A DNA stretch of 64,000 bases from a virus: the IMG/VR virus record IMGVR_UViG_3300023202_000336, positions 32,001 through 96,000 of that record; one strand, written 5' to 3'. This document shows, one piece after another, positions 1-23,687 of this stretch. The notes beneath the pieces are model-generated. The model was not told where the DNA came from. It did not search any database and saw nothing but the letters and a program-made list of their open reading frames with translations. Within the stretch, counting starts at the first letter, position 1. Every line of letters starts with the position of its first letter. A program made the position numbers and the translations under genes.

Positions 1-1
1 T

Positions 2-7278: not shown

Positions 7279-10094
7279 CACTCGCGAAGAAGATCGAGAA
7301 GAGACGGCGCGCGACCATGAAGGGCTCGAAAGGTAATTTGAGCCAGCACCCCGTCCGTAACCTTCATGCTCCGCGTAAAGCGAAGCTGGACGGCGACGGC
7401 TGGGAGTACTTCTACAAGCAGGCGATGCAGAAGTTTGCAGCCGAAGAGAGGAGTCGGCTGCGCCATATCCTTTATGTAATGGGCCGATCTCTCCAGGCTA
7501 TAAGGCCCGAGGCGCTTCAGAAGTTCGACAATAATCCGATGAAGTTTACCAATTATCTTATGGAGAATTCTGAGCATATTATTCCGACCGTGAGCGCTTA
7601 TAGTGCGATTACCGGAGATCCAGAGTTCGCGAGAGCTGCACGGTATCTGACTAGTCAGACGACCGGTCTCGAAAATATCGATGAAGTTAACGATGCGCTG
7701 AAGATAGAAGGACTCGACCTGCTCGGAAGCTTAGCGGTGGTAGGAACTCCGATAAAGGGGCTTACGAGACAGGCTGCGGAGTGGGGACCGAACGCTTATG
7801 CGATACATTATACGCTCGATCAGGTTTCGGGAGGGAAGGCTCGCGAATACATTGCCGAGGCGATAGAGCCACATGTGGACAAGTTGGAAGCGCATATCAA
7901 TGTTCATGAGTCACAGGCGAAGCTCAATAACGCGTTGATGTCGGGGGCTGGCGAGGAGGAAATTGAAGGTCTTCGGAGTCAGCTTCGGAATAACCGTGAA
8001 CGACTTATCGTCGAGAAGTCGCAAGGTTTCGCCCCTGATTACGAGACGACCGCGAAAGAAGTATCGGCTATGCGAGAGCTTGGTCTCGACGGGACAAAGC
8101 TTCTCGCTGAATCTTTTGCGATCGGTCTTTCTCCTATACAATATCCATGGATTCGATTTGGGCTCGAGCACTCTGGCCTCGGGCCAACCGCTATTCAGCG
8201 TACCCGAACCGAGGCGGAAGCGCGTGCTAGAAACGTCTCTGACCCAGGGGTTGAAGGCCAAACTTTACTACGAGGTATCCCTGGGACACCCTATAGGCCT
8301 GGCGACACCGTTACTCCTGAGATAAGGAGCGAGCTTCAACAGAAGGGGGTCGAGACTATCGCGGTAGTTCCCCCTGAGAGTACTGCTGAGAGATCGGCAC
8401 GTTTGGGCGCCGAGATTTCGTCGACAATAGCTGAATCGGCGGTCGGTATGAATGCTCTCCGGAGGGCGAGAGCCGCGGCGAAAGCGGCTCCGCGTGGATC
8501 ATCAAGGCTGTTTACTGCGGCCGGAAAAGCTGGGAGAGGAGCCGCTGCGTTTGGGAAAGCTCTCGCGAAATACTCTCCTCTTATAAGAGGAGTGATAGGG
8601 GGTGCAGAAGGCTATCATGCGATGAAGCCGGGGGCTCGTGAGCAGGTCTCGCAGCGGATAGCGGATATATATCGAGAAGAGAGAGATCTTCCTTGGTACG
8701 AGAGGGCTGGACGTGCGGCGCGGGATATCGGTGAAGGAGTCACCGGTTTAGGAGACCCGCAGCAGGCTCGAGCGCGACTTGCCGCCATGTGGGGTGCCCC
8801 TGGGCCCGAGGGGAAGTCCCGCGAAGAGATTCTTCAGGAACTTGAGCGTACTGAGAACTTCCGGGAGATGACTGCGCAAGCCGCATCAGATGTAACGGAT
8901 ATCATGCCGGGGATCGATCCCATTCGTGCCGAATGGATGGGCGCGACGATTGCGCTCAATCGCCTCCGTATAGCGGAGGGCGAACGCGCCGGTCCCGGGT
9001 ACGTTGCTGACCCTGCGCTTCGTGCACGCATTGAAGGGATGTCTTCGGAAGAACTTCAGACGGAGCTTACTGAGGCGGAGCGTCAGGCTTATCACACTCA
9101 CGCCTTCGATGAAGCGCTGCCTCATATACTCGAAGGCCACCACCCGTACGACGTAACGACGATTGAAAATGCTCGTAGACTTCTGCATCAGATGGGGCCT
9201 GCCGCATTTTCTCGGATGTTTTTAGATGCGGTCGACGAGCAGATAGTACCTACGAGACATGCTCTTGGGAAGCAGCTCCTTCGGCCCAGTGGAAACATTC
9301 CGACAGGTACTATTGTTACTCCCGAGATACAGCAGAAACTCCGTAGCGAGGGGGTAGAAGGCGTCGTAGCGGCGACATATTATCCGAATAGAGAGTTGAT
9401 GACCTATCTTCAGGAAGGTTCGAAAACTCCCGAGGGCGAGAGTAATCTTCTTCCTTATAGAGTAGATCCCGAGAAAAGACCGTTGGTTGCACGATTCACT
9501 GATCGTACGGAGCAGCCGCTTCGTCATCGCATGGAGCAGCAGCGCGAGAGAGCGCATAAGATTCGGAGACGACGTTGGAGAGAGCTGGGGAGGGCGCATC
9601 AGAAGGAGCTCCGTGAGCGAGAGCGGGCACAGCGAAGCGCTGAAACAGAGCGACGGCTCAGCGAAATGGACCGGGAGTTTGAGGAGGAATATCAGAGGTG
9701 GGAGCAAGCCCGTCGTCGACAAGACCGTCAGCAGCAAGAGGCGATGGACCTCCGTCACGCTCAGCAGTCGAAGCTGACGCAACGGGTACTCGACTGGAGT
9801 CGAGGCCGCCGTTCTCCGACAAGAAGGCCTACGATACCGGCGGGGGTGGCTCGTGCTGAGATTGCGCAGCATCTTCAGCGCAAGGGACAGCTTACCCCCG
9901 GTACCAGGAGAGCGATCTCCGAGGCTCGGCATCTCCCTCCGGCGGGGCCGCAGCAGCAGAAGGCGCTTCCGCAGACGCGTTTGAGTGATTACAGAGGTCA
10001 GTTCGAGCCCCCGTCCGTTGACGTCCAGGGTTCTACAGCGCAGAATGTATTCGCGGACGCAGGTCCGCTCGATCTCGTGGAACACGGACCTTAG
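7275..10094 (+). CDS. Large hypothetical protein (939 aa, Cys-free, Arg/Glu coiled-coil C-terminus)
   Basis: Long ORF coupled to neighbours. Two internal PG(D/T)T(V/I)(V/T)PEI..L..GV modules. N-terminal YKQAMQKFAAEE motif. Confidence 0.8.
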   Translation: MTLAKKIEKRRRATMKGSKGNLSQHPVRNLHAPRKAKLDGDGWEYFYKQAMQKFAAEERSRLRHILYVMGRSLQAIRPEALQKFDNNPMKFTNYLMENSEHIIPTVSAYSAITGDPEFARAARYLTSQTTGLENIDEVNDALKIEGLDLLGSLAVVGTPIKGLTRQAAEWGPNAYAIHYTLDQVSGGKAREYIAEAIEPHVDKLEAHINVHESQAKLNNALMSGAGEEEIEGLRSQLRNNRERLIVEKSQGFAPDYETTAKEVSAMRELGLDGTKLLAESFAIGLSPIQYPWIRFGLEHSGLGPTAIQRTRTEAEARARNVSDPGVEGQTLLRGIPGTPYRPGDTVTPEIRSELQQKGVETIAVVPPESTAERSARLGAEISSTIAESAVGMNALRRARAAAKAAPRGSSRLFTAAGKAGRGAAAFGKALAKYSPLIRGVIGGAEGYHAMKPGAREQVSQRIADIYREERDLPWYERAGRAARDIGEGVTGLGDPQQARARLAAMWGAPGPEGKSREEILQELERTENFREMTAQAASDVTDIMPGIDPIRAEWMGATIALNRLRIAEGERAGPGYVADPALRARIEGMSSEELQTELTEAERQAYHTHAFDEALPHILEGHHPYDVTTIENARRLLHQMGPAAFSRMFLDAVDEQIVPTRHALGKQLLRPSGNIPTGTIVTPEIQQKLRSEGVEGVVAATYYPNRELMTYLQEGSKTPEGESNLLPYRVDPEKRPLVARFTDRTEQPLRHRMEQQRERAHKIRRRRWRELGRAHQKELRERERAQRSAETERRLSEMDREFEEEYQRWEQARRRQDRQQQEAMDLRHAQQSKLTQRVLDWSRGRRSPTRRPTIPAGVARAEIAQHLQRKGQLTPGTRRAISEARHLPPAGPQQQKALPQTRLSDYRGQFEPPSVDVQGSTAQNVFADAGPLDLVEHGP

Positions 10095-10095
10095 T

Positions 10096-11145
10096 ATGGC
10101 ACTTCTCCCCGGTTTTGGCTCGTTCGCTCGCGACGCTATTGCGCGTGGTATGAAGAATATCGGTGGTCCTGCCGAGGATACTGTATCTGGGTCCCCTGCT
10201 CAGGAAGGTGTTCAGGCGCCTACTCCTTCGATAGAAGCGAGAAGGGCTTCCGGAGGTCCCCAGGTAGGTGCGCCGGGCGCTGGTACAGCTACTACGAAAC
10301 CTCCTACGACCAAGGCTACGCCTCCTCCTACTGATTTTCTTGGGCGCCCGGTCGGGACCGGAGCTGCTCCTGGTATCGAAGTGCCCCTTCCTGCAGGTGG
10401 TCAGGAGCCGATTCCTTCACCTCCGAAGGGGGAGAACGGCCATAAGCCGAAAGTCCCCACTGACGAGACGCCTCCTGCTGGTGACCGTCCGGCTGAGGTG
10501 ACGGAAAAGCCGGAACCTCTTGGGTTGAAGGCGGAGAAGGCATTCCGGAGTCAGCTTTTGAAGCGGCATGAACAGAGCCTCAAGAAGGCGGAGAATAAGT
10601 CTTTTTGGGATACTACGAAGGAATGGCTTGGGTCCGACTGGAAGAATCTTTTGATTCCGGCCGGCCTTCTCATGATGTTTTTCAATAACAACGTGGCCCG
10701 CCTTCTCGGTGCGGTAGCGATCGGTGCGGGCGGTTATAACCTGTATCAGCGTGGAAAAGCGCTTCTGAGCGACGATCATCCGCACCATGATCTTGTAACG
10801 AATGCAATTGCTCAGAGTGCGTCCTATACCGACCCGCAGACGAAAGAAAACATACCTTTCGGGAACTCTCAACAGGTTGTTGAAAATATACGTCAGACCC
10901 ATGGACCGGAGGCTGCACAGACGGTGAAGCAAGGTCTCATCGATTATCAGATGGCTCACCGGATCGGCGGTACTGATTTCATTATGCGTCAGCTTGCGAA
11001 CAGGCAGGAGCAGGCGCTGCGAGAAAAGTATGGTCGCGACGTTAATCTCGGGTATCAGTCGACGGTTCAGGAGAACCTCGGAAGTGCGCTCGGGTCGGCG
11101 AATCAGTGGATCCAGTCGCAGTGGCAAGGTCTTTGGAATCGATAG
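10096..11145 (+). CDS. Hypothetical protein, Pro/Thr-rich N-terminus plus hydrophobic hairpin
   Basis: Start moved to ATG 10096, just after the upstream stop. LLIPAGLLMMFF..LLGAVAIGAGGY hairpin; no Cys. Confidence 0.72.
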   Translation: MALLPGFGSFARDAIARGMKNIGGPAEDTVSGSPAQEGVQAPTPSIEARRASGGPQVGAPGAGTATTKPPTTKATPPPTDFLGRPVGTGAAPGIEVPLPAGGQEPIPSPPKGENGHKPKVPTDETPPAGDRPAEVTEKPEPLGLKAEKAFRSQLLKRHEQSLKKAENKSFWDTTKEWLGSDWKNLLIPAGLLMMFFNNNVARLLGAVAIGAGGYNLYQRGKALLSDDHPHHDLVTNAIAQSASYTDPQTKENIPFGNSQQVVENIRQTHGPEAAQTVKQGLIDYQMAHRIGGTDFIMRQLANRQEQALREKYGRDVNLGYQSTVQENLGSALGSANQWIQSQWQGLWNR

Positions 11146-11808
11146 ATGCCGTATTCGAGTGCAGCTGATTTCGCTCAAGTACAGGATTACCGACGGCGTG
11201 TTGCTGGCGATCCCTCGCGGTCGCTCGTGAGCAAAGCGCGGGCGCTTGCAGACGTCCAGCGCGAAATCGATAAGCCGGAACCTCGTCGGGGAATGACGTT
11301 CGGAGACGTATTCCGCGGTGCGATTGGGGCAGCGGCTGGATATGGTATCGCGAGAGGCGCAGCGAATGCGATGAACGTCGATCCCGAGTACAAAGGAATA
11401 CTGAGCGCCGCAGGTGCCGGATTAGGAGCTCTTATGAATTCAGGTATGCTCAAGCGTGGAGCTTCAGAAGAGGAGCGGACGCATGCTTTCCGTTTCGGTT
11501 TCGTGAAGGCGGCGCGAGACGTCGGTTACTTCGCGAAGGAGTCTGCTTTCTGGCCGATCCCTACGGTACCGATCTCTCCCGGCTCGGTGATGGCGATCCC
11601 GCGAGGTCTCGCCGGAGCTGCGGCTCGCGGCGGTCAGATCGTAGGCTCTGCGATCGGGGCGGCCGATGCTCCTGACGAGGATGAGGTTGAGTTAGCTGAG
11701 ATTCAGGTCCAGAAGGCGTTGCTCGAGGAGCAGCTCGATAGGCTGAAGTCCGAGCGACGCAATCGGGCACTCAAACGCCTCCTTGCGGAAAGGCGGGAAC
11801 AGAGATAG
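11146..11808 (+). CDS. Glycine-zipper hypothetical protein
   Basis: GAIGAAAGYGIARG, GILSAAGAGLGAL, GQIVGSAIG segments; KRGAS and KESA motifs; no Cys. Confidence 0.72.
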   Translation: MPYSSAADFAQVQDYRRRVAGDPSRSLVSKARALADVQREIDKPEPRRGMTFGDVFRGAIGAAAGYGIARGAANAMNVDPEYKGILSAAGAGLGALMNSGMLKRGASEEERTHAFRFGFVKAARDVGYFAKESAFWPIPTVPISPGSVMAIPRGLAGAAARGGQIVGSAIGAADAPDEDEVELAEIQVQKALLEEQLDRLKSERRNRALKRLLAERREQR

Positions 11809-11817
11809 TATACGGCC

Positions 11818-12162
11818 ATGCGCGATGGAATGGCGAAAACGCTTCGGATTCCGCACGGAGTCCCGATAGCGAGGCATAAGCCGGCACCGAAGATCAACGT
11901 CCCGAACGGACGCGAGACGCCGCTCTTTCATCCCGACGACCCTGACGAGAAGAAGCTCCAACAGATCTGGATCGTGAAAGTGCGCATCTTCGATCTCTCG
12001 AAACCGGAAGACGCCAGGGATTATCAGGAAGCGTGGCAGAAGATTACAGACGGACACGCGGTGAAGTCCGAGGACCGGATAGACTTCAATTCTGAGCGGG
12101 GCACATATATCGCTTTCTTGCGTTGGGCGGAGTTCGATTATAGACTCCCTGAAAGCGCATAG
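11818..12162 (+). CDS. Hypothetical protein
   Basis: 114-aa ORF filling the operon gap; no Cys. Confidence 0.62.
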   Translation: MRDGMAKTLRIPHGVPIARHKPAPKINVPNGRETPLFHPDDPDEKKLQQIWIVKVRIFDLSKPEDARDYQEAWQKITDGHAVKSEDRIDFNSERGTYIAFLRWAEFDYRLPESA

Positions 12163-12170
12163 GAAGTAGT

Positions 12171-13010
12171 ATGCAGAAAGCGGCTGCCCACGAGTGGGCA
12201 ACAGACCCGGGGTACATCCCTGTATTTGCTCTCGGCGGTGCGGCGCTCGGAGGCGGGGCTCGTTTACTGAAGAACCTCTTCGACCTTGGAAGACGTGGCC
12301 CGACGAAGTCTCCAGTGGAGATAGCGCGCCCTCTTGCGGCGCTCTCTGAGGTTCCGGTCGAGGTCTCTAAAGAGGAGGCCGAGGAGTTGCGTAAGCGCGG
12401 CGTCAAGGTTCGGAGGATGCTTTCGAAAGAAGGCGCTCATAAGAAGGAAGGTATTTCACGACTGCTGGGGTCCGCTGGACTTCTCGGTCTTGGAACCCTT
12501 TCGACCGTCGGCGGGTGGCATCTCGCCGATACGCTTATCGATGCTGCTCGGAAGCGGGCGGCGAAGAAAGATGTCGAAGACGTGAAGAAGCGGATACGCC
12601 GTATCCTCGAGGAATCGCCGTCTAATCGTGATGACGAGAAGCTCTTCGGTTACATGAAGGCGGCCGAAGACAAGTACTTCAAGAAAGAAGCGATCCTGAA
12701 GGACATTCCGGTGATTCTTGGCGGGAGCCTCGGTATTAGCGGCGTTCTTGCGGGCCTGGCCGCTTACAATCGTTTGCAGCGGTCTGCTGAGGCGTCTCCT
12801 AAGTTGACCGCATTGAAGTCTATGCTTGCTCGGAGACTTCCGCAGCGTCCGAGTATGACGATGGTGCCTGTTCTGCGAGAAGGCGACGAAGAAGAAAAGG
12901 AGGACGAGGAGCGTATCCAGCCGCGCTTCGTTCCTGTTGAGCGGGTGAGGACGCCCGGGAGCCCAGCAGTACAGGCGGCGAGAAACCGTAGCACCTCCAA
13001 TTGGATTTAG
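12171..13010 (+). CDS. Glycine-zipper hypothetical protein with three hydrophobic helices
   Basis: FALGGAALGGGA, LLGSAGLLGLGTLSTVGG, ILGGSLGISGVLAGLAAY, each preceded by a K-x-A/G motif; no Cys. Confidence 0.75.
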   Translation: MQKAAAHEWATDPGYIPVFALGGAALGGGARLLKNLFDLGRRGPTKSPVEIARPLAALSEVPVEVSKEEAEELRKRGVKVRRMLSKEGAHKKEGISRLLGSAGLLGLGTLSTVGGWHLADTLIDAARKRAAKKDVEDVKKRIRRILEESPSNRDDEKLFGYMKAAEDKYFKKEAILKDIPVILGGSLGISGVLAGLAAYNRLQRSAEASPKLTALKSMLARRLPQRPSMTMVPVLREGDEEEKEDEERIQPRFVPVERVRTPGSPAVQAARNRSTSNWI

Positions 13011-13018
13011 AGGACGTT

Positions 13019-16000
13019 ATGCCGTTTACGGCTTGGTCCCCTGATCACGCTCGCCCAGGACTGGGGCCGGCTCCATTCGATCCGCCGACTCCGGCCGCGA
13101 AGCCCGTGCAGCTGCGTCGATTCGATGACATCGAACAACAGCGAAAGGCTATCTACGAGTCCGCGCGGAGTGCGTTCCAGAATCTTCGTCCGATTCAGAA
13201 CGCGTCGTACCGAATCGAAGTAGCTGACGTCGATTACGACACCCCTGATTTCGAGCCTTCGATCTCCGACGAAAAGAAGGCGCTTCTGCAGAGCGGGTCG
13301 CTTCATCGCCCCCTTAAGGGCACGGTTCGTCTGGTTGATCAGAATACCGGAGACGTAGTTGGTGAGGAGCGGACGACGCTCGCACACGTGCCACACCTCA
13401 ACAGTCGTGGTATGGTGATCCGAAAAGGAGTTGTCTGGGTTCCGCGGAACCAGGCCCGCTTGAGACCCGGCGTGTATACGCGTCACAAGAAGAGTGGCGG
13501 AATAGAGGCGCAGTTCAATGTGAAGGGTGGTCGCGCCTTCCGTATCGAGCTCGAGCCAGAGTCCGGTCTTTTCAAGATGAATATCGGCCAGTCGACCACC
13601 CGTCTCTATCCGATTCTTCGTGCGATGGGTATCACTGATGACGCGATGCGAGAGGCGTGGGGTGACGAGCTGTTCAAAAAGAACTATCGACGTGAATCCG
13701 GGAGCGACGACAAAGACCTGAGAAAGGTCGTGAAGAAGCTCGGACCTTCGGGGGTGACTGTCGAGGATGATCAGCTCGTTGACGTATTAAAGGAGTCGGT
13801 ACAGAAGTCGAAGGTCGATCCGGACGTCATGGAAATCACGATGGGGGAGCGAGCTGAGAACGTCGCCCCTGAGCATCTCTTTCAGGTGACGAACAAGATT
13901 TTGAACGTGAGTCGCGGGACTGCTGACGGCGATAACCGCGATTCGCAGGCGTTCCAGTCGATTCATTCTGCCGAGGATTTCATACGGGAACGGCTCGAGA
14001 AAGATCAGGTAGGAGCGCTGCGTAAACTCCTCTGGAGGGCGACACGAGAGAAGAAGCTTCCGAAGGTCCAGTCGGGGCTGATGAATAAGAACATCTCTTC
14101 GATTTTCGAAGGCTCCGGTCTCGCGGTCGCTGCAGAGGATATCAACCCGTTCGAGATTCACGACCTACGGCAGGGGATCATTCGACTCGGTGAGGGCGGG
14201 ATCAGCTCAGAGAGGGCTGTGAGCCGCGAGGCACGCGGTGTGCAAGCGAGTTACGCAGGTCTGATCGACTCGGGGAGAGGGCCGGAGTCGGGAAGACTCG
14301 GGTTGGATCTGCGTGTGACCGATGCAGCGCAGAAGGGCGACGACAACCAGCTCTATACCGAGGTGAGAAATCTCAAGACCGGTGAGACTGAAACTGTGTC
14401 TGCGAGAACACTTTCTTCGAAGATCGTCACCTTCCCTGGCGAACTCTCGTCCGATACCAAGAGAATCCCGGCGATTAAAGGCGATAAGATCGTTTACGTC
14501 CCGAAAGACGAGGTCGATTACGAGATTGCGAGTCCGAATGACATGATGTCACGGGCGACCGCGATGATCCCGTTTCCAGAGTCGATCAAGGGCCAGAGGC
14601 TGCTCATGGGCGCGCGTATGACCTCCCAGGCTCTTCCGCTGGAAGAGGCTGAAGCGCCTTATGTGCAGACAGCGTCGAAGGACGGGACTAGCCTTCATAA
14701 ACAGATGGGCCCGGTCGTTGGTGCCCGGGTTTCTCCGGTCGGAGGGGTTGTAACGAAGATTTCTCCCGATTTCATTGAGCTCGCGGCCGATGACGGCAAG
14801 AAGCGTCGTATCGACCTTTACAACAACTATCCGACTGCTCGTAAGACGATGATACATAACGAGCCCACGGTGAAGAAGGGTCAGCGGATCAAGGAGGGTG
14901 ATCTCGTTGCGAAGTCAAATTTTACGAGCGACGACGGGACTGCGGCCGTAGGGCGTAATCTTCGTACCGCATTTGCGATCGCAGAAGGCAATACGATCGA
15001 AGACGCGTTCGTCATTTCGGAGTCGGCAGCGAAGAAGCTCACGTCGCAGCATCTCTATAAGCATGACGTCGATTTGAAGGATCTCGAATCGACGGATAAG
15101 AAGCGGTACGTTTCGATATACGCTGATAAGTGGGGTCCCGAGCAGCTCGATCGATTGGATGATGACGGGGTCATTAGAGAAGGAGCAACGGTAAACGCCG
15201 GAGACCCGGTTGTTCTCGGTTTTGCGAAGAAAAAGAAGCGAGGTGTCGGGGCGCTGATGCGTTCGCCAAGAGATGCTTTCGCTGATAAAACGCAGACGTG
15301 GAATCATCATTCGCCGGGCGTAGTGACGGACGTGGTGAAGGGGCGTAAAGGGATAAAGGTTACGCTCAAATCAAAGGAGGCGATGAAGCCGGGCGACAAA
15401 CTGTGCTATAGCCCTGACCACGAAATACTTACACAGCGCGGCTGGATACCCGTCTCAAAGACACTACACTCTGATCTGATAGCCTCGCTAAACCCGGATA
15501 CGGATGAAATTGAGTACGTTCGTCCGGTGGAAATACATTCTTTCGATCACGATGACGTAATGTATGAGGTCGAGTCTACACAGGTGTCGATGTGCGTTAC
15601 TCCCGACCACAAAGTATATGCTTCTAAAAAGAAGGATAAGAAGGATCTCGATTATCATCTTTTTGAGGCGCGAGAGTTGTTCGGAAGGACATATCGTCTC
15701 AAAAACTCTGGGAGGTGGGCAGGAGAGTCTCCAAGTCACATCGTGTTCCCTGAGTGTCAGGTTAAACACGGTGGAATAGGTAACTCATATCGCACTATTC
15801 CTGAAAAGGCAATATCAATACAGGCTTATTTCGTTCTGTTAGGCCTCTTTCTGTCTGAGGGGAATGTATTTAAACACGTGAAGAGCGGGAGCTACGGTAT
15901 AGACATAACTCAGTGTAAAGAAAGTAATATAATCAAAATAAAGCACGTGTTGGATAGCCACGGTATTAAGTATTCTCGTAATAAGACTAAGTTCCGGCTT

Positions 16001-18544
16001 TACGGGCGTCAGTTGCTTAATTATTTTGAGCAATTTGGAAAGTGCCACGAGAAATATATACCCAACTGGGTTTTTTCGTGTAGCAGTGAGGACCTTAAAA
16101 TACTCTTCGAATGGATGATGCTTGGAGATGGGCACTATAGTGCTACATGCGCTTCTTATGTGACTACGTCTAAAAATCTCGCCGACGACTTTCAGAGGCT
16201 TTGTCTTCATATCGGATACGCCGGAAAGGTAAAAGCTACTAATAGAGAGCCGTGTATTCTCAAGTTTCCGGGTAGAGAAGACGTCACTATTCCTAAAACA
16301 CGGTACGACGTAAGCGTGTATAGGGGTAAGCTGAATCCTACCATTAATCACAGCCATACGAGGCACCAGCGCGGGCAGTCTGAGAGATGGGTTAATTACA
16401 CGGGAAAGGTGCATTGTGTAACTCTTGAGAGGAATCATATACTTTATACGCGTAGGAACGGGAAGGCTCATTGGAGCGGCAATACCTCGCGGTACGGGGC
16501 CAAGGGTGTAATTTCAGAGATTCGACCTGATGAGCAAATGCCGACTGACGACGACAGTCGACCGGTCGAGGTGATTGCGAATAGTCTCGGAGTGATCTCT
16601 CGGACCAATCCTTCCATGCTTGCTGAAGCTATTCTCGGAAAGATCTCAGAAAAAACGGGCAAGCCGTACGTGATCAAGGGGTTCGGAAATTCCGGTGACG
16701 TTGTGGAGTATGCGCTTCGCGAAGGAGTTAAGCATGGGGTCGTAAGTGTCGATGACGAAGGCAATATAACCGACGTTGGCGTACTCACCGATCCGAGGGA
16801 TAACCGGAAGATCAAAAATATGTTCACCGGAATCCCGTATCTGATGAAGCTACACCACGTTGCAGAAGCGAAGATCAGCAGCCGTGATACCGGCGGTTAC
16901 ACCGCTGAAGGAATACCTGCCCGAGGCGGGAAAGAAGGCAGCAAGCGGATTGGGCTTCTCGACGCGCATAGCTTGCTCTCAGCCGGAGCTACCGAGTTTC
17001 TCAAAGATGCGAAGCTCATTCGTGGGCAGCGTAACGACGAGTACTGGCGAGCATTAAAGGCGGGTGATACCCCGTTGCAGCCAACGGTTTCGTTTGCGAA
17101 TGAGATGTTCAAGTCGCAGCTTCGAGCAGCTGGGGTCAATCTTCGTGAAAAAGGGACACGTACCGGTCTCGCGCCGCTCCTTGATCAGGACGTTGATAAG
17201 ATCGCTCAGCATGAGATTGAGCGTCCCGGCACTTTTGATTTCGAAACGATGCGCCCGATCAAAGGTGGTCTTTTCGATTTGACGGCGACTGGTGGAGCGG
17301 AAGGGACTCGGTTCTCGAAGATCACGCTTCCGAGAAAGATTCCACATCCACTTTTCGTCGAGCCGATCCAGCGGGTGCTTGGTCTGACCGGTAAGCAGTT
17401 CGAAAATGTTCTCTCCGGGAAGGAGGAGCTTCACGGCGAAACTGGCCCGGACGCGGTCGAGAAGGCGCTCAAGAGTCTTGATGTAGACCGAGAGATCGGC
17501 CTTGCGAAAGAGGAGATTCGCACCGGAAAGAAAACGCGTCGTGACAAGGCGGTGAAGAAGCTGAATTATCTTACCGGTATCAAGCAGATGGAGATCAATC
17601 CAGAAGATCTGATGATCAGCAAGATCCCGGTGATCCCTCCCCGTTTCCGCCCGATTTCGAAGGCGAAAAATATCGACATCGTCCACGACTTGAACTACCT
17701 CTATCACGACCTGTTAGAGGCGAAGAAGAACTATAACGATGCTCAGGAGGTGTTCGGAGAGGCTGACGACGAATATATGACGATGATGAATGCGGTGAAA
17801 TCCGTCGCGGGGTTGCGTGAACCGGTGAATCCGAAGTCAGTCGATCAGGGCGTGAAGGGCATTCTTCGCTACGCGATTGGAATCGGCGATAGTCCGAAGT
17901 CGGCAACCTTTCAGCGTAAGGTGATAGGAAGTGCGGTCGATACAGTCGGGCGCGGTGTTATTACGGCCGACTCGAACCTCGATATGGACGAGGTCGGTGT
18001 TCCTGAGGATATGGCGTGGAATATCTTCAAACCGTTTACGATGCGTCGACTCCGTCGCTACGGGTATTCTGCTCGTGACTCGCTCAAGGCGGTTAAGGAT
18101 CGCACCCCGGTTGCCAGGAAGGCGCTTGAGGAAGAAATGGCGGAGCGACCGGTCGTTTACAACCGCGCCCCGTCGTTGCACCGCTACAGCTACGTAGGCG
18201 CTTGGGGCAAGATCAGGGACGATGACGCGATTGGTATGCCCTACCATACTTTGAAGGGGCTGGGAGGTGACTACGACGGGGATACGGTGAACATCCATGT
18301 TCCCGTTTCGTCTGACTCGGTCGATGAGGTCAAAGAGAAGCTCATGCCGAGTAAGAACCTCTATTTCACAGGTACCTTCGAGACGCACCTCGAGCCGAAT
18401 CAGGATTATTTGGCCGGACTCTTCCTTGCGAGCATGCCGGATCCGAAGGAAGAGGTAAAAACGTTCGCAAACGAAGAAGAGGCTCGAAAGGCCTATGCGC
18501 GAGGAGAGATCAGCGCACGAACGCCGATCCGTATTCTTGCGTGA
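13019..18544 (+). CDS. rpoBC: Multi-subunit RNA polymerase, beta subunit fused to N-terminal half of beta-prime (intein-containing)
   Basis: Beta motifs: GPESGRLG, RLLMGARMTSQALPL, GNTIEDAFVIS, GDKL|TSRYGAKGVI, NSLGVISRTN, YLMKLHH. Beta-prime motifs: KIPVIPPRFRP, VDTVGRGVI, YNRAPSLHR, catalytic GGDYDGD (18263-18283). Start placed at ATG 13019 behind a GAGGA RBS. Confidence 0.95.
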   Translation: MPFTAWSPDHARPGLGPAPFDPPTPAAKPVQLRRFDDIEQQRKAIYESARSAFQNLRPIQNASYRIEVADVDYDTPDFEPSISDEKKALLQSGSLHRPLKGTVRLVDQNTGDVVGEERTTLAHVPHLNSRGMVIRKGVVWVPRNQARLRPGVYTRHKKSGGIEAQFNVKGGRAFRIELEPESGLFKMNIGQSTTRLYPILRAMGITDDAMREAWGDELFKKNYRRESGSDDKDLRKVVKKLGPSGVTVEDDQLVDVLKESVQKSKVDPDVMEITMGERAENVAPEHLFQVTNKILNVSRGTADGDNRDSQAFQSIHSAEDFIRERLEKDQVGALRKLLWRATREKKLPKVQSGLMNKNISSIFEGSGLAVAAEDINPFEIHDLRQGIIRLGEGGISSERAVSREARGVQASYAGLIDSGRGPESGRLGLDLRVTDAAQKGDDNQLYTEVRNLKTGETETVSARTLSSKIVTFPGELSSDTKRIPAIKGDKIVYVPKDEVDYEIASPNDMMSRATAMIPFPESIKGQRLLMGARMTSQALPLEEAEAPYVQTASKDGTSLHKQMGPVVGARVSPVGGVVTKISPDFIELAADDGKKRRIDLYNNYPTARKTMIHNEPTVKKGQRIKEGDLVAKSNFTSDDGTAAVGRNLRTAFAIAEGNTIEDAFVISESAAKKLTSQHLYKHDVDLKDLESTDKKRYVSIYADKWGPEQLDRLDDDGVIREGATVNAGDPVVLGFAKKKKRGVGALMRSPRDAFADKTQTWNHHSPGVVTDVVKGRKGIKVTLKSKEAMKPGDKLCYSPDHEILTQRGWIPVSKTLHSDLIASLNPDTDEIEYVRPVEIHSFDHDDVMYEVESTQVSMCVTPDHKVYASKKKDKKDLDYHLFEARELFGRTYRLKNSGRWAGESPSHIVFPECQVKHGGIGNSYRTIPEKAISIQAYFVLLGLFLSEGNVFKHVKSGSYGIDITQCKESNIIKIKHVLDSHGIKYSRNKTKFRLYGRQLLNYFEQFGKCHEKYIPNWVFSCSSEDLKILFEWMMLGDGHYSATCASYVTTSKNLADDFQRLCLHIGYAGKVKATNREPCILKFPGREDVTIPKTRYDVSVYRGKLNPTINHSHTRHQRGQSERWVNYTGKVHCVTLERNHILYTRRNGKAHWSGNTSRYGAKGVISEIRPDEQMPTDDDSRPVEVIANSLGVISRTNPSMLAEAILGKISEKTGKPYVIKGFGNSGDVVEYALREGVKHGVVSVDDEGNITDVGVLTDPRDNRKIKNMFTGIPYLMKLHHVAEAKISSRDTGGYTAEGIPARGGKEGSKRIGLLDAHSLLSAGATEFLKDAKLIRGQRNDEYWRALKAGDTPLQPTVSFANEMFKSQLRAAGVNLREKGTRTGLAPLLDQDVDKIAQHEIERPGTFDFETMRPIKGGLFDLTATGGAEGTRFSKITLPRKIPHPLFVEPIQRVLGLTGKQFENVLSGKEELHGETGPDAVEKALKSLDVDREIGLAKEEIRTGKKTRRDKAVKKLNYLTGIKQMEINPEDLMISKIPVIPPRFRPISKAKNIDIVHDLNYLYHDLLEAKKNYNDAQEVFGEADDEYMTMMNAVKSVAGLREPVNPKSVDQGVKGILRYAIGIGDSPKSATFQRKVIGSAVDTVGRGVITADSNLDMDEVGVPEDMAWNIFKPFTMRRLRRYGYSARDSLKAVKDRTPVARKALEEEMAERPVVYNRAPSLHRYSYVGAWGKIRDDDAIGMPYHTLKGLGGDYDGDTVNIHVPVSSDSVDEVKEKLMPSKNLYFTGTFETHLEPNQDYLAGLFLASMPDPKEEVKTFANEEEARKAYARGEISARTPIRILA
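15404..16483 (+). mobile_element. Intein with LAGLIDADG endonuclease in RNAP beta (360 aa)
   Basis: Starts CYSPDHEIL; block B VTPDHKV; helices LLGLFLSEGNV and WMMLGDGH; ends HWSGN, followed by Thr(+1). Inserted in the conserved GDK motif. Visibly more AT-rich than flanks. Confidence 0.93.
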
Positions 18545-18587
18545 TTGTCCATCTGGTACTGTCGCTACTCGAGAATAGGATACGTAC

Positions 18588-19613
18588 ATGACACCGTTAC
18601 AGCTGAAACTCTACAAGCGGTCCTTCGTTCCGATGGGGCCGTCCGCGGAGAAAACCGGCCAGCAGGCGTCCGGACCCGGCGGAATGCCGGTCGGTCCCGG
18701 CGCTGGCGCTCCTCCGCCTCCGGGAATGATGCCTCCTGGTGGAGGGATGCCTCTGCCTCCTGGCGGCGCCGGCGGGACGCCTCCGCCCCCGGGTATAGGA
18801 CCGATGGATCCGTCAGCTCCGATGGATCCCGCTGCGGGTGGTGCCCCTCCGGCCGACCCTATGGCTGCACTTCCTCCGATGCCGGGGGAGGAAGGGCTCG
18901 ATGTGCCACCGGAGACGCTTCCGGAGGACCTCGGAGCCGCCCCTGAGGGCGGGGGTGACGGTCTTTCTACGGCAGATGCAGAGGCGGCTGCGAAGATCCA
19001 GCAGCAGACGCTCGATATCGTCGAGCGGACGCTGGACATGGTCGGTAAGACCAAGAAGGATAAGCCGCAAGAGGGTGCCCAGGACCTGCAGCAGGACGGC
19101 CAGGAGCAGGCCGATCAACAGCAGGAAGAACCACCTCCTGAGGCTCAGCCGGGACCTATCACCGGTGAGCCCGGCTTTAGCCCGGGCATGATTAATGGTC
19201 CACTTAAGCTGGGCTCGGCATCGATTGTTACGAAGGCCCTCAAGACGGCGGCTGCTCGTCGTGCCGCTACTAAGACGGCTGCGGTGCTCACGCAGCTGTT
19301 GGTTAAGAACGCTCAGTCCTCAGCCGATATCTGGCGTAAGAAGCGTGGAATGAAGCCCGGCCAGCGCGTGACGGCTCCGAGTAAAGCGTATCGTACTGGG
19401 GTTGCTGGAGGGGCAACGGCGATGACTTCTACGCAGACTCCTACGACTACGCAGACTCCTACGACTACGCAGACTCCTACGACTACGCAGTCCTCCGCTG
19501 ATATTTGGCGTCAGAACCGTGGAATGAAGCCCGGCCAGCGCGTGACGGCCCCGACGGAGGGGGCAGGGGCGGTGACTTCTCGGCAGACTCCTACTGGTTA
19601 TTACTCTCTATGA
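18588..19613 (+). CDS. Pro/Gly-rich low-complexity protein with internally duplicated C-terminal unit
   Basis: Poly-Pro/Gly/Met N-half; two copies of SSADIWR..RGMKPGQRVTAP; TQTPTT repeats; clustered KTAA/KNAQ motifs; no Cys. Confidence 0.72.
   Translation: MTPLQLKLYKRSFVPMGPSAEKTGQQASGPGGMPVGPGAGAPPPPGMMPPGGGMPLPPGGAGGTPPPPGIGPMDPSAPMDPAAGGAPPADPMAALPPMPGEEGLDVPPETLPEDLGAAPEGGGDGLSTADAEAAAKIQQQTLDIVERTLDMVGKTKKDKPQEGAQDLQQDGQEQADQQQEEPPPEAQPGPITGEPGFSPGMINGPLKLGSASIVTKALKTAAARRAATKTAAVLTQLLVKNAQSSADIWRKKRGMKPGQRVTAPSKAYRTGVAGGATAMTSTQTPTTTQTPTTTQTPTTTQSSADIWRQNRGMKPGQRVTAPTEGAGAVTSRQTPTGYYSL
19431..19490 (+). repeat. 18-bp tandem repeat, 3.3 copies (ACGCAGACTCCTACGACT; encodes TQTPTT)
   Basis: Read directly from the sequence. 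Confidence 0.9.
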
Positions 19614-21271
19614 GGCTTGGGAAGTTCGCCTTTGGTAAGTCCGCTCAGTACCAGGGCGCACCGGTAGGTGGCGCTGGGATGATGTGGAACCCGATGGGGA
19701 TGTTGCAGCAAGCTCATCAGCAGCGTTTGCAGCACGGGCAGCGCTCCTCGGATTTCGCATATGGACCTCCCGCAGCGCCTGGATTCGTGACAGGGCAGCA
19801 GGCGGCGGTAGGAGGCGCCCAGGCGGTAGCTGGTTCAATCGGCGCGCTGATTATGGGCGTCGCGATGCCTTACATTCAGTCTGTCGCAGGCGAGGCCGGC
19901 GTTGACCTTCATCAGCCGTATCAGATCGCTTACGGGGCGAATCCGGCCGATGCTCGAGAGATCGCACGAGTCACGGGTCAGGTCATGCAGCGTCAGTTCG
20001 AGACGACCGGTGCGAGTGTTCAGGGCCTCATTTCAACGTTGGACGAGCAGGTTGAGAAGAATTTTGGTATCGAGCTTCCTCTTGAGGAGATCCGCCATCT
20101 TCCCGCCGGAGCTGTTGGAAACTTCGTTCAGCAGCTTTCTATGTTCGTTCCCGAGATTCAGACGGTTCTTTCGACGATGGATCCTCGTTATATTTCTGAC
20201 CTCTCACCGATGGTGAAGGCGACTTACGTCGCAAATAATGGTGAGTTCGATCCAAACGTATTTAGAAACGTCGTTCAGGATTTTCAGCAGTCCTACAATA
20301 AAGGGCAGTTCAGAGGAGTCCCTGCCCAGATCGCGATGCATGCGGTACAGTATGCGAAAGAGCGAGGCGGTCCTGGCGCGGGAATGCGGGAAGCGGTAAA
20401 CGCTGCGCAGTCTGCGAACGCATTCGTTCAGGCGGGACTTGCGCCGAGCTTCGGAGAGGCGCTCACGCTTGTAAACGAGGTTGATCCAACTGGTGGCCTC
20501 ATAAATCCGACGAGAGCGATTCGTTACGCATCCCAGCTGAACGAGATGGCGAAACGCGGATTCGTCGATCGGAAGCATATCTTCGAAGCCGCCCGTGTCG
20601 CTCGGCAGCAGGGTCTCCCAATTAGGGCGGCGATGACGGCAGTCGCTGGCGGCGGCCGTGCACGAACGATGGTGCGTGGACCTCGTGGAAGTGAGCTCGC
20701 GGAGACCGCGGCGAGTACGATGGCCCGCATGGGCGAGTCTGACACGATGCGGCTACTCGCGGCAGCGCACCAGCAGAGCCCGAGGGCACGGGGCCTCATT
20801 GAGCGGGCGCTCGAGACGGGCGATAACCGCCTCCTGGACCGCGTTATACAGAAGGCCCAGCAAAGCCCTCGTCTGATGGCCTCGAAGACTCATGTCGACC
20901 CTTCATACCTGATCAACCGGATGGATCCGAATATGATGCGCGGTCAGGTCATGTCAGATGTGCGGCGATTCGCTGCGCAGACTGGCAGCCGCGACCTTCA
21001 GCGGCTCGTGAACCGCCCCGAGGAGCTTCAGAGACGTCTTCGCACGCACGATTTCACTGGTCTTGATCCGCAGGCGGTTCGGTACTTGAGTGAAGGCGGC
21101 CCGACTGGCGGCCGTCTCGGTGCAGCTGCGATGACGTTCGCAGACCCGTTCGGCACCGAGTCTGACCTCTCGAGGTACCATAAGCCTCCGAAGCGGCTTG
21201 GTCTCCCGTTCCCGGAGATGAAGCCGAGCGGCCCTCCCGTGACACAGCGTTTCGATCCGGTCGAACGGTGA
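19610..21271 (+). CDS. Ala/Gly/Gln-rich helical protein (candidate ejection or tape-measure-like)
   Basis: Start set at ATG 19610 (ATGA overlap). 553 aa, hydrophobic AVGGAQAVAGSIGALIMGV segment; no Cys. Confidence 0.72.
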   Translation: MRLGKFAFGKSAQYQGAPVGGAGMMWNPMGMLQQAHQQRLQHGQRSSDFAYGPPAAPGFVTGQQAAVGGAQAVAGSIGALIMGVAMPYIQSVAGEAGVDLHQPYQIAYGANPADAREIARVTGQVMQRQFETTGASVQGLISTLDEQVEKNFGIELPLEEIRHLPAGAVGNFVQQLSMFVPEIQTVLSTMDPRYISDLSPMVKATYVANNGEFDPNVFRNVVQDFQQSYNKGQFRGVPAQIAMHAVQYAKERGGPGAGMREAVNAAQSANAFVQAGLAPSFGEALTLVNEVDPTGGLINPTRAIRYASQLNEMAKRGFVDRKHIFEAARVARQQGLPIRAAMTAVAGGGRARTMVRGPRGSELAETAASTMARMGESDTMRLLAAAHQQSPRARGLIERALETGDNRLLDRVIQKAQQSPRLMASKTHVDPSYLINRMDPNMMRGQVMSDVRRFAAQTGSRDLQRLVNRPEELQRRLRTHDFTGLDPQAVRYLSEGGPTGGRLGAAAMTFADPFGTESDLSRYHKPPKRLGLPFPEMKPSGPPVTQRFDPVER

Positions 21272-21502
21272 ATGCGCATTCACAATGAGGAACGGTTGAT
21301 GATCGTCCGTATCGTCCATGAGAACGGGAAAATCTATGATATGCCGGTCTCCCAGGTCTCGGTACATACTGAGAACGGCGACCCGTGTATGCTCGCTTAC
21401 GAGCACGCAAATCTGATAGTTTGTTCCCATGTGAACGAAAAGGACTTTGAACGGCAGTGTGCGCAGCTGAAAATCGACCGCATCGAGGTGCCCCATGCCT
21501 GA
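21272..21502 (+). CDS. Small hypothetical protein
   Basis: 76-aa ORF abutting both neighbours; start uncertain. Confidence 0.55.
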   Translation: MRIHNEERLMIVRIVHENGKIYDMPVSQVSVHTENGDPCMLAYEHANLIVCSHVNEKDFERQCAQLKIDRIEVPHA

Positions 21503-21809
21503 CTGTGCGGTAGAGCAAGAAGCAATCGAGCGTCTCAGGTCATTAACCTGTGATGCGATGATGCATTATTTCGAAACTTTCGATGAGTATCCGACGCATC
21601 TGTACGTGAATACTGGGTCTGATGCTGAGAGGATCGTGAGATCAGCGCTTGAGAGGGTCGGTACCACCGAATTTCTTTTTGCGTTGACGGTTGTTCTCCG
21701 GAAGTTCTCTTTCGGGAAATCTGATCTTTTCGTCGGTGAGGACCGGTACGCCTCGGATATGCGGCGCTGCGCGGTGTTGAGCTATCGAAATTACAGTTCA
21801 GGCTCGTGA
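21495..21809 (+). CDS. Small hypothetical protein
   Basis: 104-aa ORF, overlaps the upstream stop. Confidence 0.55.
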   Translation: MPDCAVEQEAIERLRSLTCDAMMHYFETFDEYPTHLYVNTGSDAERIVRSALERVGTTEFLFALTVVLRKFSFGKSDLFVGEDRYASDMRRCAVLSYRNYSSGS

Positions 21810-21812
21810 GAC

Positions 21813-23687
21813 ATGGCTGATATCACGACTGTTGGTACGATTCTTATTAATGACGCGCTGCCTGAGGATATGCGTAAGAAGGAGCATCGTCTCGATAAAA
21901 AAGGTGTTCACGAGCTGTTTATGGAGCTCGCGAAGAAACATCCGGAGAAATACAGCGCGGTTCTGCAAGAACTTTCGAATGTAGGAAAAACGGCTGCATG
22001 GACCGAGGGGCTGAGCGTGAGTCTCGCGGCGCTTCGTAAATCGAAAGCGAAAGAAGCGATATTGCAGCCGGTCAGAGAGAGAATCAGAGCGATCGTCGAT
22101 GACGATGATCTCAATGATGAAGAGCGAAACGAAGCTATTATTAACGAGCTTATGAAGGTTTCGAACGATCTGACGGAGGCCATTTACGAAGAGTCGAAAG
22201 CGGAGGGATCGCCTTTCGCAGTTCAGATCGAAAGCGGTGCGCGTGGAAAGAAGTCGAATCTCGCAAGTCTCCGAGGGGCCGATTTACTCGCGACTGACCA
22301 AAACGATAACTTCATTCCTGTTCCGATATGGAACTCATATGCCGAAGGGCTCACTCCGGCGCAATATTTTGCTGCGAGTTACGGGCAGCGGAAAGGTATG
22401 CTGAATACGAAGCTCGCGACGGCAGATGCTGGATTCCTCTCCAAACAGCTCGTGAACGCTGCACATCGGCAGGTTGTTACGAGGGACGAGCCTGAGGCGA
22501 CGCGCCTTCCAGTGGGCCTTCCGACGAGGACGGACGATAAAGATAACATTGGAGCCGTTCTCGCCCAGGACGTCGGTAAGTATACAGCTGGAACCGTTCT
22601 CGACGATGAGACGCTCGAAGACCTCCAGGACGAAGGTATCGAGGACATTCTCGTGCATTCGATCATGACCGAGCCGTCTGCGGACGGGGGCGTGAGTGCA
22701 CAAGCGGCAGGACATCGTACCCGTGAAGGACTTCATCAGCTGGGGGACAATATCGGTATCCCTGCCGCGCAAGCGGTTGGCGAACGATTGAGCCAGGGAT
22801 CTTTATCGGCGAAGCACTCCGCTGGAGTTTCAGATCGTGTCAGTAAATCTGGGTTCGAGTACATCAATCGCCTCATCCAGGCTCCCGAGAGCTTTCCCGA
22901 GGCAGGACCGCTCGCGGAAGAAGATGGCTTGGTCGAAGACGTCCGTGAAGCTCCGCAGGGTGGTAACTATATCCGCGTGAAGAAGCGCGAGTATTACATC
23001 CCTCCGGGCTTGAACGTGACGGTCAAGGTCGGCGACGAGGTAGAGCAGGGTGATGACCTCAGCGATGGGACGCCGCACCCAGGAGATCTGGTTCGCCTTC
23101 GCGGGATCGGCGAAGCGAGGCGGGTTTACATGCAGAACCTCAAGGAGGCGCTCGATGCCTCGGGAGTCGACGCACATCGACGCAACGTTGAGGCTGTTAC
23201 GGCCGGGCTGATAAATTGGGCACGTGTGACCGACCCTGACGGCATCGATCAGCACATTTACGATGACGTAGTTCCTTTCAACAACTTGGCTTACAGCTAT
23301 AAGCCTCGTGCTGACGCTGAAGAACTCGAACCGAAGAAGCTCGTAGGACGTTACCTGGAGGAGCCGGTCCTCCATTATACGCCAGGAACACGGGTGACCC
23401 GGAAGATCGCGAAGGATCTCGAGAAGTGGAAGATCAAGAAGGCGTTCGGTCACCAGGATCCGCCCGAATTCGAGCCCCACATGGTCCGCGGTCTTCACAG
23501 TATTTTCCACGATCCGGACTGGAGGACCCGTCTTTCAGGCTTTTATACTGCTTCGGCCTTCCAGAAATCACTTCACCGAGGGCGCGAATCTGATGTCCAG
23601 AGCACGAGTTACGTCCCGTCTCTGACGACACCGCAGGTGCTCGGCCGGCAGCTGAAGACGCTTGGCAAGTACGGTCAGCAGAGATAG
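21813..23687 (+). CDS. rpoC: RNA polymerase beta-prime subunit, C-terminal half
   Basis: ESGARG; bridge helix YGQRKGMLNTKLATADAGFLSKQL; GDNIGIPAAQAVGE; trigger loop LSQGSLSAKH; SBHM-like VKVGDEVEQGDDLSDG. Confidence 0.93.
   Translation: MADITTVGTILINDALPEDMRKKEHRLDKKGVHELFMELAKKHPEKYSAVLQELSNVGKTAAWTEGLSVSLAALRKSKAKEAILQPVRERIRAIVDDDDLNDEERNEAIINELMKVSNDLTEAIYEESKAEGSPFAVQIESGARGKKSNLASLRGADLLATDQNDNFIPVPIWNSYAEGLTPAQYFAASYGQRKGMLNTKLATADAGFLSKQLVNAAHRQVVTRDEPEATRLPVGLPTRTDDKDNIGAVLAQDVGKYTAGTVLDDETLEDLQDEGIEDILVHSIMTEPSADGGVSAQAAGHRTREGLHQLGDNIGIPAAQAVGERLSQGSLSAKHSAGVSDRVSKSGFEYINRLIQAPESFPEAGPLAEEDGLVEDVREAPQGGNYIRVKKREYYIPPGLNVTVKVGDEVEQGDDLSDGTPHPGDLVRLRGIGEARRVYMQNLKEALDASGVDAHRRNVEAVTAGLINWARVTDPDGIDQHIYDDVVPFNNLAYSYKPRADAEELEPKKLVGRYLEEPVLHYTPGTRVTRKIAKDLEKWKIKKAFGHQDPPEFEPHMVRGLHSIFHDPDWRTRLSGFYTASAFQKSLHRGRESDVQSTSYVPSLTTPQVLGRQLKTLGKYGQQR

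Follow-up and report, generated by a model that had tools for sequence, protein, structure and literature searches.

RNA polymerases (RNAPs) carried in the virion are known already, and so are the N4-type ejection proteins in which cysteine is suppressed. The case described here is a variation on both: a multisubunit RNAP without cysteine, encoded at positions 13019-23687 of a 64,000-nucleotide stretch of viral DNA (hereafter the window), which comprises bases 32001-96000 of the IMG/VR virus record IMGVR_UViG_3300023202_000336. The record has 180,134 bp with direct terminal repeats, and its source is a complete 180-kb tailed phage. In the N4-like phages (Schitoviridae; N4 gp50-52, DEV gp71-73) cysteine is suppressed across the polymerase gene and its neighbors, as it is in the window, and in N4 these neighbors encode ejection proteins. 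The virion RNAP (vRNAP) of the Schitoviridae and its two operon partners contain 0.00075%, 0.0055% and 0% cysteine compared to 0.865% proteome-wide, and passage through the tail or periplasm has been put forward as the reason for this suppression across the ejection operon (PMC11445570, PMC3715699). However, the N4 vRNAP is a single chain of 3,400-3,500 aa with a T7-like single-subunit catalytic domain of unrelated fold, whereas the enzyme of the window is of the beta/beta' type and accompanied by a sigma-like factor. The N4-like phages are also podoviruses with further polymerases for their later genes.

The RNAPs of phiKZ- and AR9-type phages are, like that of the window, multisubunit enzymes with beta/beta'-like chains that lack alpha and omega, and their virion copy is encoded beside head genes; in phiKZ, gp178 and gp180 adjoin the head protease gp175. 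The phiKZ-type virion RNAP is injected for early transcription (PMC13282480). phiKZ harbors two RNAP sets of four or five polypeptides each and no sigma homologue, whereas the phage of the window has one set of two chains with a sigma-like factor, and this set is close to bacterial RNAP (E 1e-36 to 1e-41). The phiKZ chains are too divergent to be aligned confidently with those of the window. Pfam analysis of the phiKZ genome gave no match for PF00623 (Rpb1_2) and one for PF00562, and its gene coordinates were taken from the annotation. By its published description the mReC lineage also resembles the phage studied here, as it comprises uncultured tailed phages, known from IMG/VR and metagenomes, whose beta and beta' genes branch deeply, some on contigs of more than 200 kb (PMC7481178). 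The same paper is silent on virions, on a fusion of these chains, on inteins and on cysteine. A 2026 review of jumbo phages mentions neither this RNAP architecture in virions nor its absence of cysteine.

The RNAP of the window is encoded on the plus strand in two chains. The first is a fusion of beta with the N-terminal part of beta' (beta-beta'N). Its open reading frame (ORF) spans 13001-18544, and its actual start is the ATG at 13019. The beta N-extein of 795 aa (13019..15403; Pfam Rpb2_6, E 4.6e-36) ends with GDKL and is followed by a LAGLIDADG intein of 360 aa (15404..16483; Pfam LAGLIDADG_3, E 2.3e-7) and by a C-extein of 686 aa (16484..18544), in which Pfam matches to Rpb1_1 and Rpb1_2 and PDB alignment locate the rest of beta fused to beta'-N. 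The second chain, the C-terminal part of beta' (beta'-C; 21813..23687, 624 aa), matches Rpb1_5 (E 1.1e-18) and RPOC_hybrid. The Rpb1_2 (E 4e-19) and Rpb1_5 (E 1e-18) matches are both above the cut-offs, and that to Rpb1_1 (28.2 bits) is under its cut-off of 39.7 bits. The best PDB matches are bacterial beta' subunits (E 4.5e-41 and 8.7e-39), and the catalytic DYDGD triad (nt 18269-18283) is intact and aligns to bacterial DFDGD. By these matches the enzyme is classified as a two-barrel cellular-type (bacterial-like) RNAP in two chains, in agreement with the initial annotation of the window, which had proposed such an enzyme from the bare sequence.

The intein, residues C802..N1161 of the fusion ORF, begins with CYSPDH, has TPDH as block B and ends with ...WSGN, after which Thr is the +1 residue. 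It is predicted to be a class 1 LAGLIDADG intein, with Cys1, T-x-x-H, a terminal Asn, a nucleophilic +1 residue and two LAGLIDADG motifs; its penultimate residue is Gly, not His. The intein splits the active-site motif of beta, for which the predicted spliced reading is GDKL/TSRYGAKG (GDK...R-x-G-x-KG motif present). The beta/beta'-N chain would first have to splice it out. In the complete genome no match was obtained for alpha (PF01000) or omega (PF01192), for which all 14 control genomes were positive. A second beta or beta' set, which the initial annotation had recommended looking for elsewhere in the genome, was not detectable in the complete genome either. T7-like RNAP (PF00940) likewise gave no match in the genome, but the controls gave none for this family, which makes this negative a weak one. 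A sigma-70-like factor is encoded at 56124..56906 on the plus strand (Pfam Sigma70_r3, E 3.8e-9; homologue of Arash gp10, see below). It contains no cysteine and is the only sigma factor detectable by searches of the phage's own genome.

Cysteine is absent from both polymerase chains. The exteins (795 + 686 = 1481 aa) and beta'-C (624 aa) contain none, and all 10 cysteines of the fusion ORF are located at aa 802-1139, inside the intein. Over the ORFs at 6733-23687, 5,081 aa are free of cysteine; this sum leaves out the intein and two small ORFs at 21272-21502 and 21495-21809. The recount thus reproduces what had been read from the translations before, namely the two cysteine-free chains, about 10 cysteines in the intein and about 5080 cysteine-free aa in the large ORFs. 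Cysteine accounts for 1.24% of residues in the ORFs of the genome; the proportion is 0.70% in the remaining ORFs of the virion module and 1.74% outside it. A depletion equally strong in all non-virion proteins, which would have spoken against the original interpretation, was therefore not seen. The probability of finding no cysteine is about 1e-28 if the genome rate applies and 2e-16 if that of the virion module does. TGT/TGC (TGY) codons are entirely missing in frame from the RNAP exteins and beta'-C, but the other two frames contain 41 and 72 of them. This indicates that base composition does not explain the absence of cysteine. Cysteine-free ORFs of at least 150 aa are found in 25 of 56 cases in the virion module versus 6 of 83 elsewhere.

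Cellular multisubunit RNAPs carry structural zinc sites, and the bacterial and replication-module phage RNAPs compared here all retain those of beta'. In the window both are gone in PDB alignments, which agrees with the earlier description of the enzyme as purged of cysteine and zinc. At the first site (Zn1), bacterial DGLFC aligns to GGLFD (nt 17264-17278), so that the first ligand is replaced by Asp. The distance of about 11 residues from GGLFD to the next conserved block indicates that the Zn1 ribbon is deleted, with the spacing of the E. coli zinc ribbon as reference. At the second site (Zn2, about nt 22662-22712), bacterial TCE-x4-G-x-C-x2-C-x-G aligns to TEPSADGGVSAQAAG in the PDB alignment. 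The fourth Zn2 ligand, located upstream, is also replaced, and thus all four Zn2 ligands are gone.

By gene position, the RNAP genes sit in a late structural module, between the portal gene and the genes for a prohead-protease-like protein and the major capsid protein. Their location between portal and prohead protease had been claimed before; both flanks are confirmed, with a weak match for the protease (PHROG head maturation protease, E 1.6e-5). From the portal to past beta'-C the genes are on the same strand and their junctions are short or overlapping.

The comparison with homologues shows that the depletion is clade-wide. An exhaustive HMMER search with beta'-C recovered 1,043 cluster representatives (50% identity) at E<1e-30, and cysteines were tallied, after removal of inteins, in the best 150 of these, all of which are at least 40% identical. 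The polymerase part is free of cysteine in 126 of the 150 representatives. Seventeen contain exactly the Zn2 quartet C-x53-58-C-x6-C-x2-C, to which two of these proteins add one further cysteine, and the remaining seven contain one or two cysteines. Cysteines that survive in the beta'-C family are nearly always the four zinc ligands. In a tree that was rooted on Arash and D181 and has 50%-identity cluster representatives and the window's own protein as rows, a single change accounts for the loss of Zn2 (branch support 93), and the zinc-less state covers 133 rows that have diverged to about 40% identity. Among 77 intein-free homologues of beta-beta'N (1,436-1,554 aa, 43-71% identical), 64 harbor no cysteine, eight harbor one and four harbor two; the outlier P0195 harbors 11, along with intein Pfam domains. 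None of the 12 homologues of the sigma-like factor contains cysteine. Without inserts, beta'-C measures 606-634 aa among the 150 closest representatives, compared to roughly 1,200-1,500 aa for bacterial beta'.

Gene order is conserved as well. In relatives at 57% and 45% identity the succession of polyprotein, portal, small ORFs, beta-beta'N, one or two ORFs and beta'-C is kept. In the relative at 45% identity (L012), both RNAP chains and both ORFs flanking beta-beta'N are free of cysteine, and the next downstream ORF, of 802 aa, contains 17. In 88 relatives beta'-C carries C-terminal extensions of 300-1,150 aa, with 20 cysteines in 54,033 aa, that hold NUDIX, DUF5661, DUF4269 or SNF2-helicase domains. 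Cysteine-free modules of these types are fused to beta'-C in P0029, P0036 and P0127. In the window, NUDIX and DUF5661 are also found in the polyprotein that immediately precedes the portal. The RNA/DNA enzyme modules NUDIX, SNF2 helicase and DUF5661 are separate in the phage of the window, whereas they are covalently fused to beta'-C in relatives. Equivalence of the extensions to the ORF downstream of beta'-C in the window was considered and rejected, as they are heterogeneous and their similarity is limited to a short segment of the upstream polyprotein. The beta'-C family is also an intein hotspot, with 65 inteins among the 150 representatives. All 65 start with Cys, and the scar is Ser in 64 cases and Thr in one, never Cys; they share insertion sites and are not independent. 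The few sites lie near query residues 188-210 and 322-342, and a protein has at most two inteins.

A megablast search with the region as query gave no match at the DNA level among 50,697 phage records. By protein comparison, the nearest cultured relatives of beta'-C are found in Salmonella phage Arash (28% identity, 98% coverage) and in Vibrio phages D181, D148 and D69 (26% identity), followed more remotely by Ralstonia phage RP13, Cobetia phage Carin-5 and a group of Rhizobium phages. Arash and the three Vibrio phages share the beta/beta'-N fusion and the separate beta'-C, located just downstream of the portal. As in the window, the Arash-type phages encode a sigma-like factor among structural genes and have lost Zn1. 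Their RNAPs are 26-30% identical to that of the window and retain the Zn2 quartet C-x51-C-x6-C-x2-C, of which all four residues are replaced here. The Arash enzyme is nearly free of cysteine, with one in the 1525 aa of beta-beta'N plus the four Zn2 ligands, and D181 has 1 + 1 in its beta-beta'N pieces plus the Zn2 quartet in beta'-C. Arash differs in that it has a second sigma factor (gp196), no intein in its RNAP and one small ORF between portal and RNAP, compared to six (about 2,080 aa) in the window. In D181 (L019 5848-11362) beta-beta'N is annotated as two ORFs of 514 and 1006 aa, between which lie a gene for a homing endonuclease and two tiny ORFs. This arrangement points to an intron or to a split gene at the location of the intein in the phage of the window.

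In Carin-5, the RHph_Y65 group and RP13, beta' is homologous at 22-24% identity, and Carin-5 also has an adjacent sigma factor. However, the RNAP genes of these phages adjoin genes for DNA polymerase, dCMP deaminase, dUTPase or ribonucleotide reductase. Their beta' is one full-length chain in Carin-5 and RHph_Y65 and is annotated as two ORFs in RP13. Both zinc sites are retained (C-x-C-x12-C-x2-C; C...C-x6-C-x2-C), and cysteine amounts to 0.4-1.7%, with 10 cysteines in beta' of Carin-5, 16 in RHph_Y65 and 9 + 7 in RP13. The cysteine content thus tracks gene location: RNAPs encoded in replication modules are ordinary, and portal-adjacent RNAPs are depleted. The zinc sites form a graded series, from both sites in the replication-module enzymes through Zn2 only in the Arash-like enzymes to none in the window.

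Evidence on packaging comes from Arash. In mass spectrometry of its virions, Gp206 (beta-beta'N) ranked top with 128 unique peptides and 3,516 spectra, and Gp216 (beta'-C) was fifth by spectra with 40 unique peptides and 1,210 spectra (PMC10585845). The SNF2-like helicase Gp217 (38 unique peptides, 1,148 spectra) and the sigma factor Gp10 (24 unique peptides, 467 spectra) were also detected, and the second sigma factor Gp196 is absent from the table (PMC10585845). Gp217 contains no cysteine, and Gp196 contains three. From this proteome, that of a relative 28-30% identical in its RNAP, we infer that the RNAP of the window is probably packaged in the virion. The initial annotation's proposal of a packaged RNAP that would be threaded out unfolded and refold in the host is supported in part, namely for the type of enzyme, the purge of cysteine and zinc, the location in the head module, the lack of a detectable second RNAP and the virion detection in Arash.

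Taken together, the most likely reading, and one that we hold with fair though by no means full confidence, is that the window encodes a virion-carried RNAP holoenzyme that is delivered into the host along with the DNA. The RNAP would be synthesized late and enter the capsid, probably together with the sigma-like factor and the cysteine-free, glycine-zipper, low-complexity neighbors. Delivered into the next host with the DNA, it would begin phage transcription without the host RNAP, and newly made copies of the same core would take over later transcription. As a second RNAP was not detectable, this core is probably also the one in use once new copies have been made. A single packaged core used throughout infection resembles the strategy of poxviruses and differs from that of N4 and phiKZ. 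The loss of cysteine, the deletion of Zn1 and the replacement of Zn2 may be adaptations to this route of delivery. If the enzyme leaves the virion through a narrow channel and possibly passes an oxidizing periplasm, it might not afford wrong disulfides or re-acquisition of zinc upon refolding.

Several observations weigh against a virion-delivered holoenzyme. The Arash list comprises 116 proteins and includes ligase, primase and ribonucleotide reductase, and its authors noted that abundant intracellular enzymes may contaminate the preparation (PMC10585845). Due to these enzymes the packaging evidence is suggestive, not conclusive. The virion data are those of Arash, which lies outside the fully cysteine-free clade at 28-30% identity. 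A periplasm in the host of the phage of the window is a presumption; the named cultured phages with related RNAPs all infect Gram-negatives (Salmonella, Vibrio, Ralstonia, Rhizobium, Cobetia). Furthermore, the injected vRNAP of phiKZ (gp80, gp149, gp178, gp180) keeps 16 cysteines in 2,614 aa (0.61%), compared to 33 in 2,850 aa (1.16%) in its non-virion RNAP. This shows that cysteine loss is not obligatory for an ejected multisubunit RNAP. Finally, the capsid protein and several tail-region ORFs of the window's phage are cysteine-free as well, and the absence of cysteine may mark proteins of the virion rather than ejected ones.

The cause of the loss is less certain. Transit through a channel or the periplasm is one reading of it, and long extracellular storage is a close rival. 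According to this alternative, the RNAP is packaged, but cysteine and zinc were purged for shelf life, to avoid oxidation and loss of metal, with no role for unfolded threading or periplasmic disulfide catalysts. It would account for the depletion in virion proteins that need no ejection, such as the capsid protein, and for the excess of cysteine-free ORFs in the virion module, and it is in line with phiKZ, whose cysteine-containing RNAP indicates that transit alone does not require a purge. However, the portal, with its CxxC...CxxC pair, and the exteins of the protease-like protein keep their cysteines, so that cysteine is not generally forbidden by storage in the particle. A complete purge is limited to the RNAP block, the sigma factor and the fused enzyme modules, and the published pattern in Schitoviridae is confined to the ejection operon. 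Adaptation to storage alone is considered unlikely, although it deserves more weight than the other alternatives.

Somewhat less probable still is that the RNAP is not packaged at all but acts inside the cell as a middle or late enzyme, free of cysteine as a protection against thiol or oxidative stress or against a shut-off factor that attacks zinc sites. The virion detection comes from a single homologue, that of Arash, the preparation of which also held plainly intracellular enzymes, and a single RNAP must work in the cell for the later genes anyway. On the other hand, the gene lies inside the head module in conserved synteny, the cysteine content follows head- versus replication-module location across related phages, and no thiol-directed factor was identified. 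In addition, the Arash RNAP yielded 128 unique peptides, whereas the replication and nucleotide-metabolism enzymes yielded 2 to 11 in the rows of the table considered (PMC10585845). The dependence of the cysteine pattern on gene location in particular makes an exclusively intracellular role less likely. Neutral drift of the lineage or an accident of composition is excluded for practical purposes: cysteine is a rare residue and scarce in many phage structural proteins, but the lack of in-frame TGY codons, the persistence of the cysteine-free state over 133 diverged tree rows, the restriction of cysteines, where present, to exactly the four zinc ligands and P <1e-15 even at the virion-module rate argue against it. 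Drift would also call for near-zero cysteine throughout the genomes of the clade, in contrast to the 1.74% outside the virion module here.

A more far-reaching version of virion delivery is possible but tentative. One RNAP core would be both carried in the particle and used during all of infection, as in poxviruses, and it would be co-delivered with the sigma-like factor and with an enzyme kit of NUDIX, SNF2 helicase and DUF5661 proteins. If this is true, the absolute absence of cysteine would be a sequence-only marker of the whole injected protein set in uncultured phages, and the enzyme would be the first known case of a cellular-type RNAP that folds and functions without zinc or thiol. The existence of a large natural clade that lacks both zinc sites and all thiols but keeps the catalytic motifs shows that the zinc sites and thiols are dispensable for the core fold. 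A two-chain RNAP free of metal sites would also be a simple enzyme for refolding and mechanistic work. If delivered in the virion, this cellular-type enzyme would come under the rule that ejected proteins lack cysteine, which would then extend beyond the single-subunit N4-type polymerases. Cysteine content could also serve to pick out candidates for virion delivery in metagenomic phage genomes for which proteomics is impossible. More than 1,000 clusters of beta'-C (50% identity, E<1e-30) indicate a common but unstudied transcription strategy.

The remaining genes of the module to which features are assigned below are, like the RNAP genes, encoded on the plus strand. At its left end the window contains the C-terminal part (1..2221) of an enzyme polyprotein of 1491 aa with NUDIX (E 1e-9) and DUF5661 (E 4e-5) domains. 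The ORF begins 2,254 nt before the window, and its 699 aa inside the window contain no cysteine. All five cysteines of the polyprotein are located at aa 695-764, within one stretch of 70 aa. The portal protein (3833..6703; tblastn to Arash gp204, E 1.7e-43) contains an intein at about nt 4187-5158 (C119..N442), with Cys443 as the +1 residue and thus a Cys scar; its Pfam Intein_splicing match of 28.3 bits is under the cut-off of 35.8 bits. Six tightly packed ORFs follow at 6733..13010 (6733-7278, 7275-10094, 10096-11145, 11146-11808, 11818-12162 and 12171-13010), with no cysteine in 2,082 aa. Between the RNAP genes are two low-complexity ORFs (18588..21271) without cysteine in 894 aa, one consisting of Pro/Gly/Thr repeats (18588-19613) and one rich in Met (19610-21271). 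These are followed by the two small ORFs of 76 and 104 aa at 21272-21502 and 21495-21809, which contain three cysteines each and are, besides the intein, the sole cysteine-bearing sequences of the block.

Pfam and PHROGs searches of the eight cysteine-free ORFs that flank the RNAP genes gave no family match. These ORFs are rich in Ala, Gly, Pro and Arg and contain hydrophobic stretches of the glycine-zipper type. For the 939-aa and 279-aa ORFs, ESM Atlas gave uninformative results, with feature scores <=0.81, pLDDT of 0.46-0.49 and TM <=0.26. By resemblance the eight ORFs are candidates for internal or ejection proteins. ORFs of similar size hold the positions between portal and RNAP in relatives, and shorter ORFs lie between the RNAP genes there.

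Downstream of beta'-C, the prohead-protease-like protein (29619..31523; homologue of Arash gp222) carries an intein at about nt 30081-30683 (Pfam Intein_splicing, E 7e-11) with Ser as the +1 residue. Together with the inteins of the portal and the RNAP, this makes three in the head module. Their +1 residues differ: Cys in the portal, Thr in RNAP beta and Ser in the protease-like protein. The motif K-x-A-[AGS], a putative site of the maturation protease, was tried as a packaging mark on the RNAP and rejected. It occurs six times in the RNAP block compared to seven expected, and not at all in beta-beta'N; this lack of enrichment gives no support for processing of the RNAP. In other virion-module ORFs the motif is about 2.5-fold enriched (48 versus 19 +/- 4 in shuffles), with five to seven copies each in 23712-26015, 27258-28634 and the polyprotein and no enrichment in the rest of the genome, which would fit a site of the maturation protease.

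The major capsid protein (34273..35211; 312 aa, homologue of the Arash major capsid protein gp226, E 7e-25) contains no cysteine. Directly downstream of its gene, a 339-aa ORF (35438-36457) harbors 18 cysteines (5.3%), several of them in CxxC pairs, in sharp contrast to its cysteine-free neighbors. In phiKZ, the tail-associated endolysin/tail fiber gp181 (L017 34334-41047, record 189334-196047; 2,237 aa) contains a single cysteine (0.04%), far below the phiKZ vRNAP (0.61%) and DNA polymerase (1.57%).

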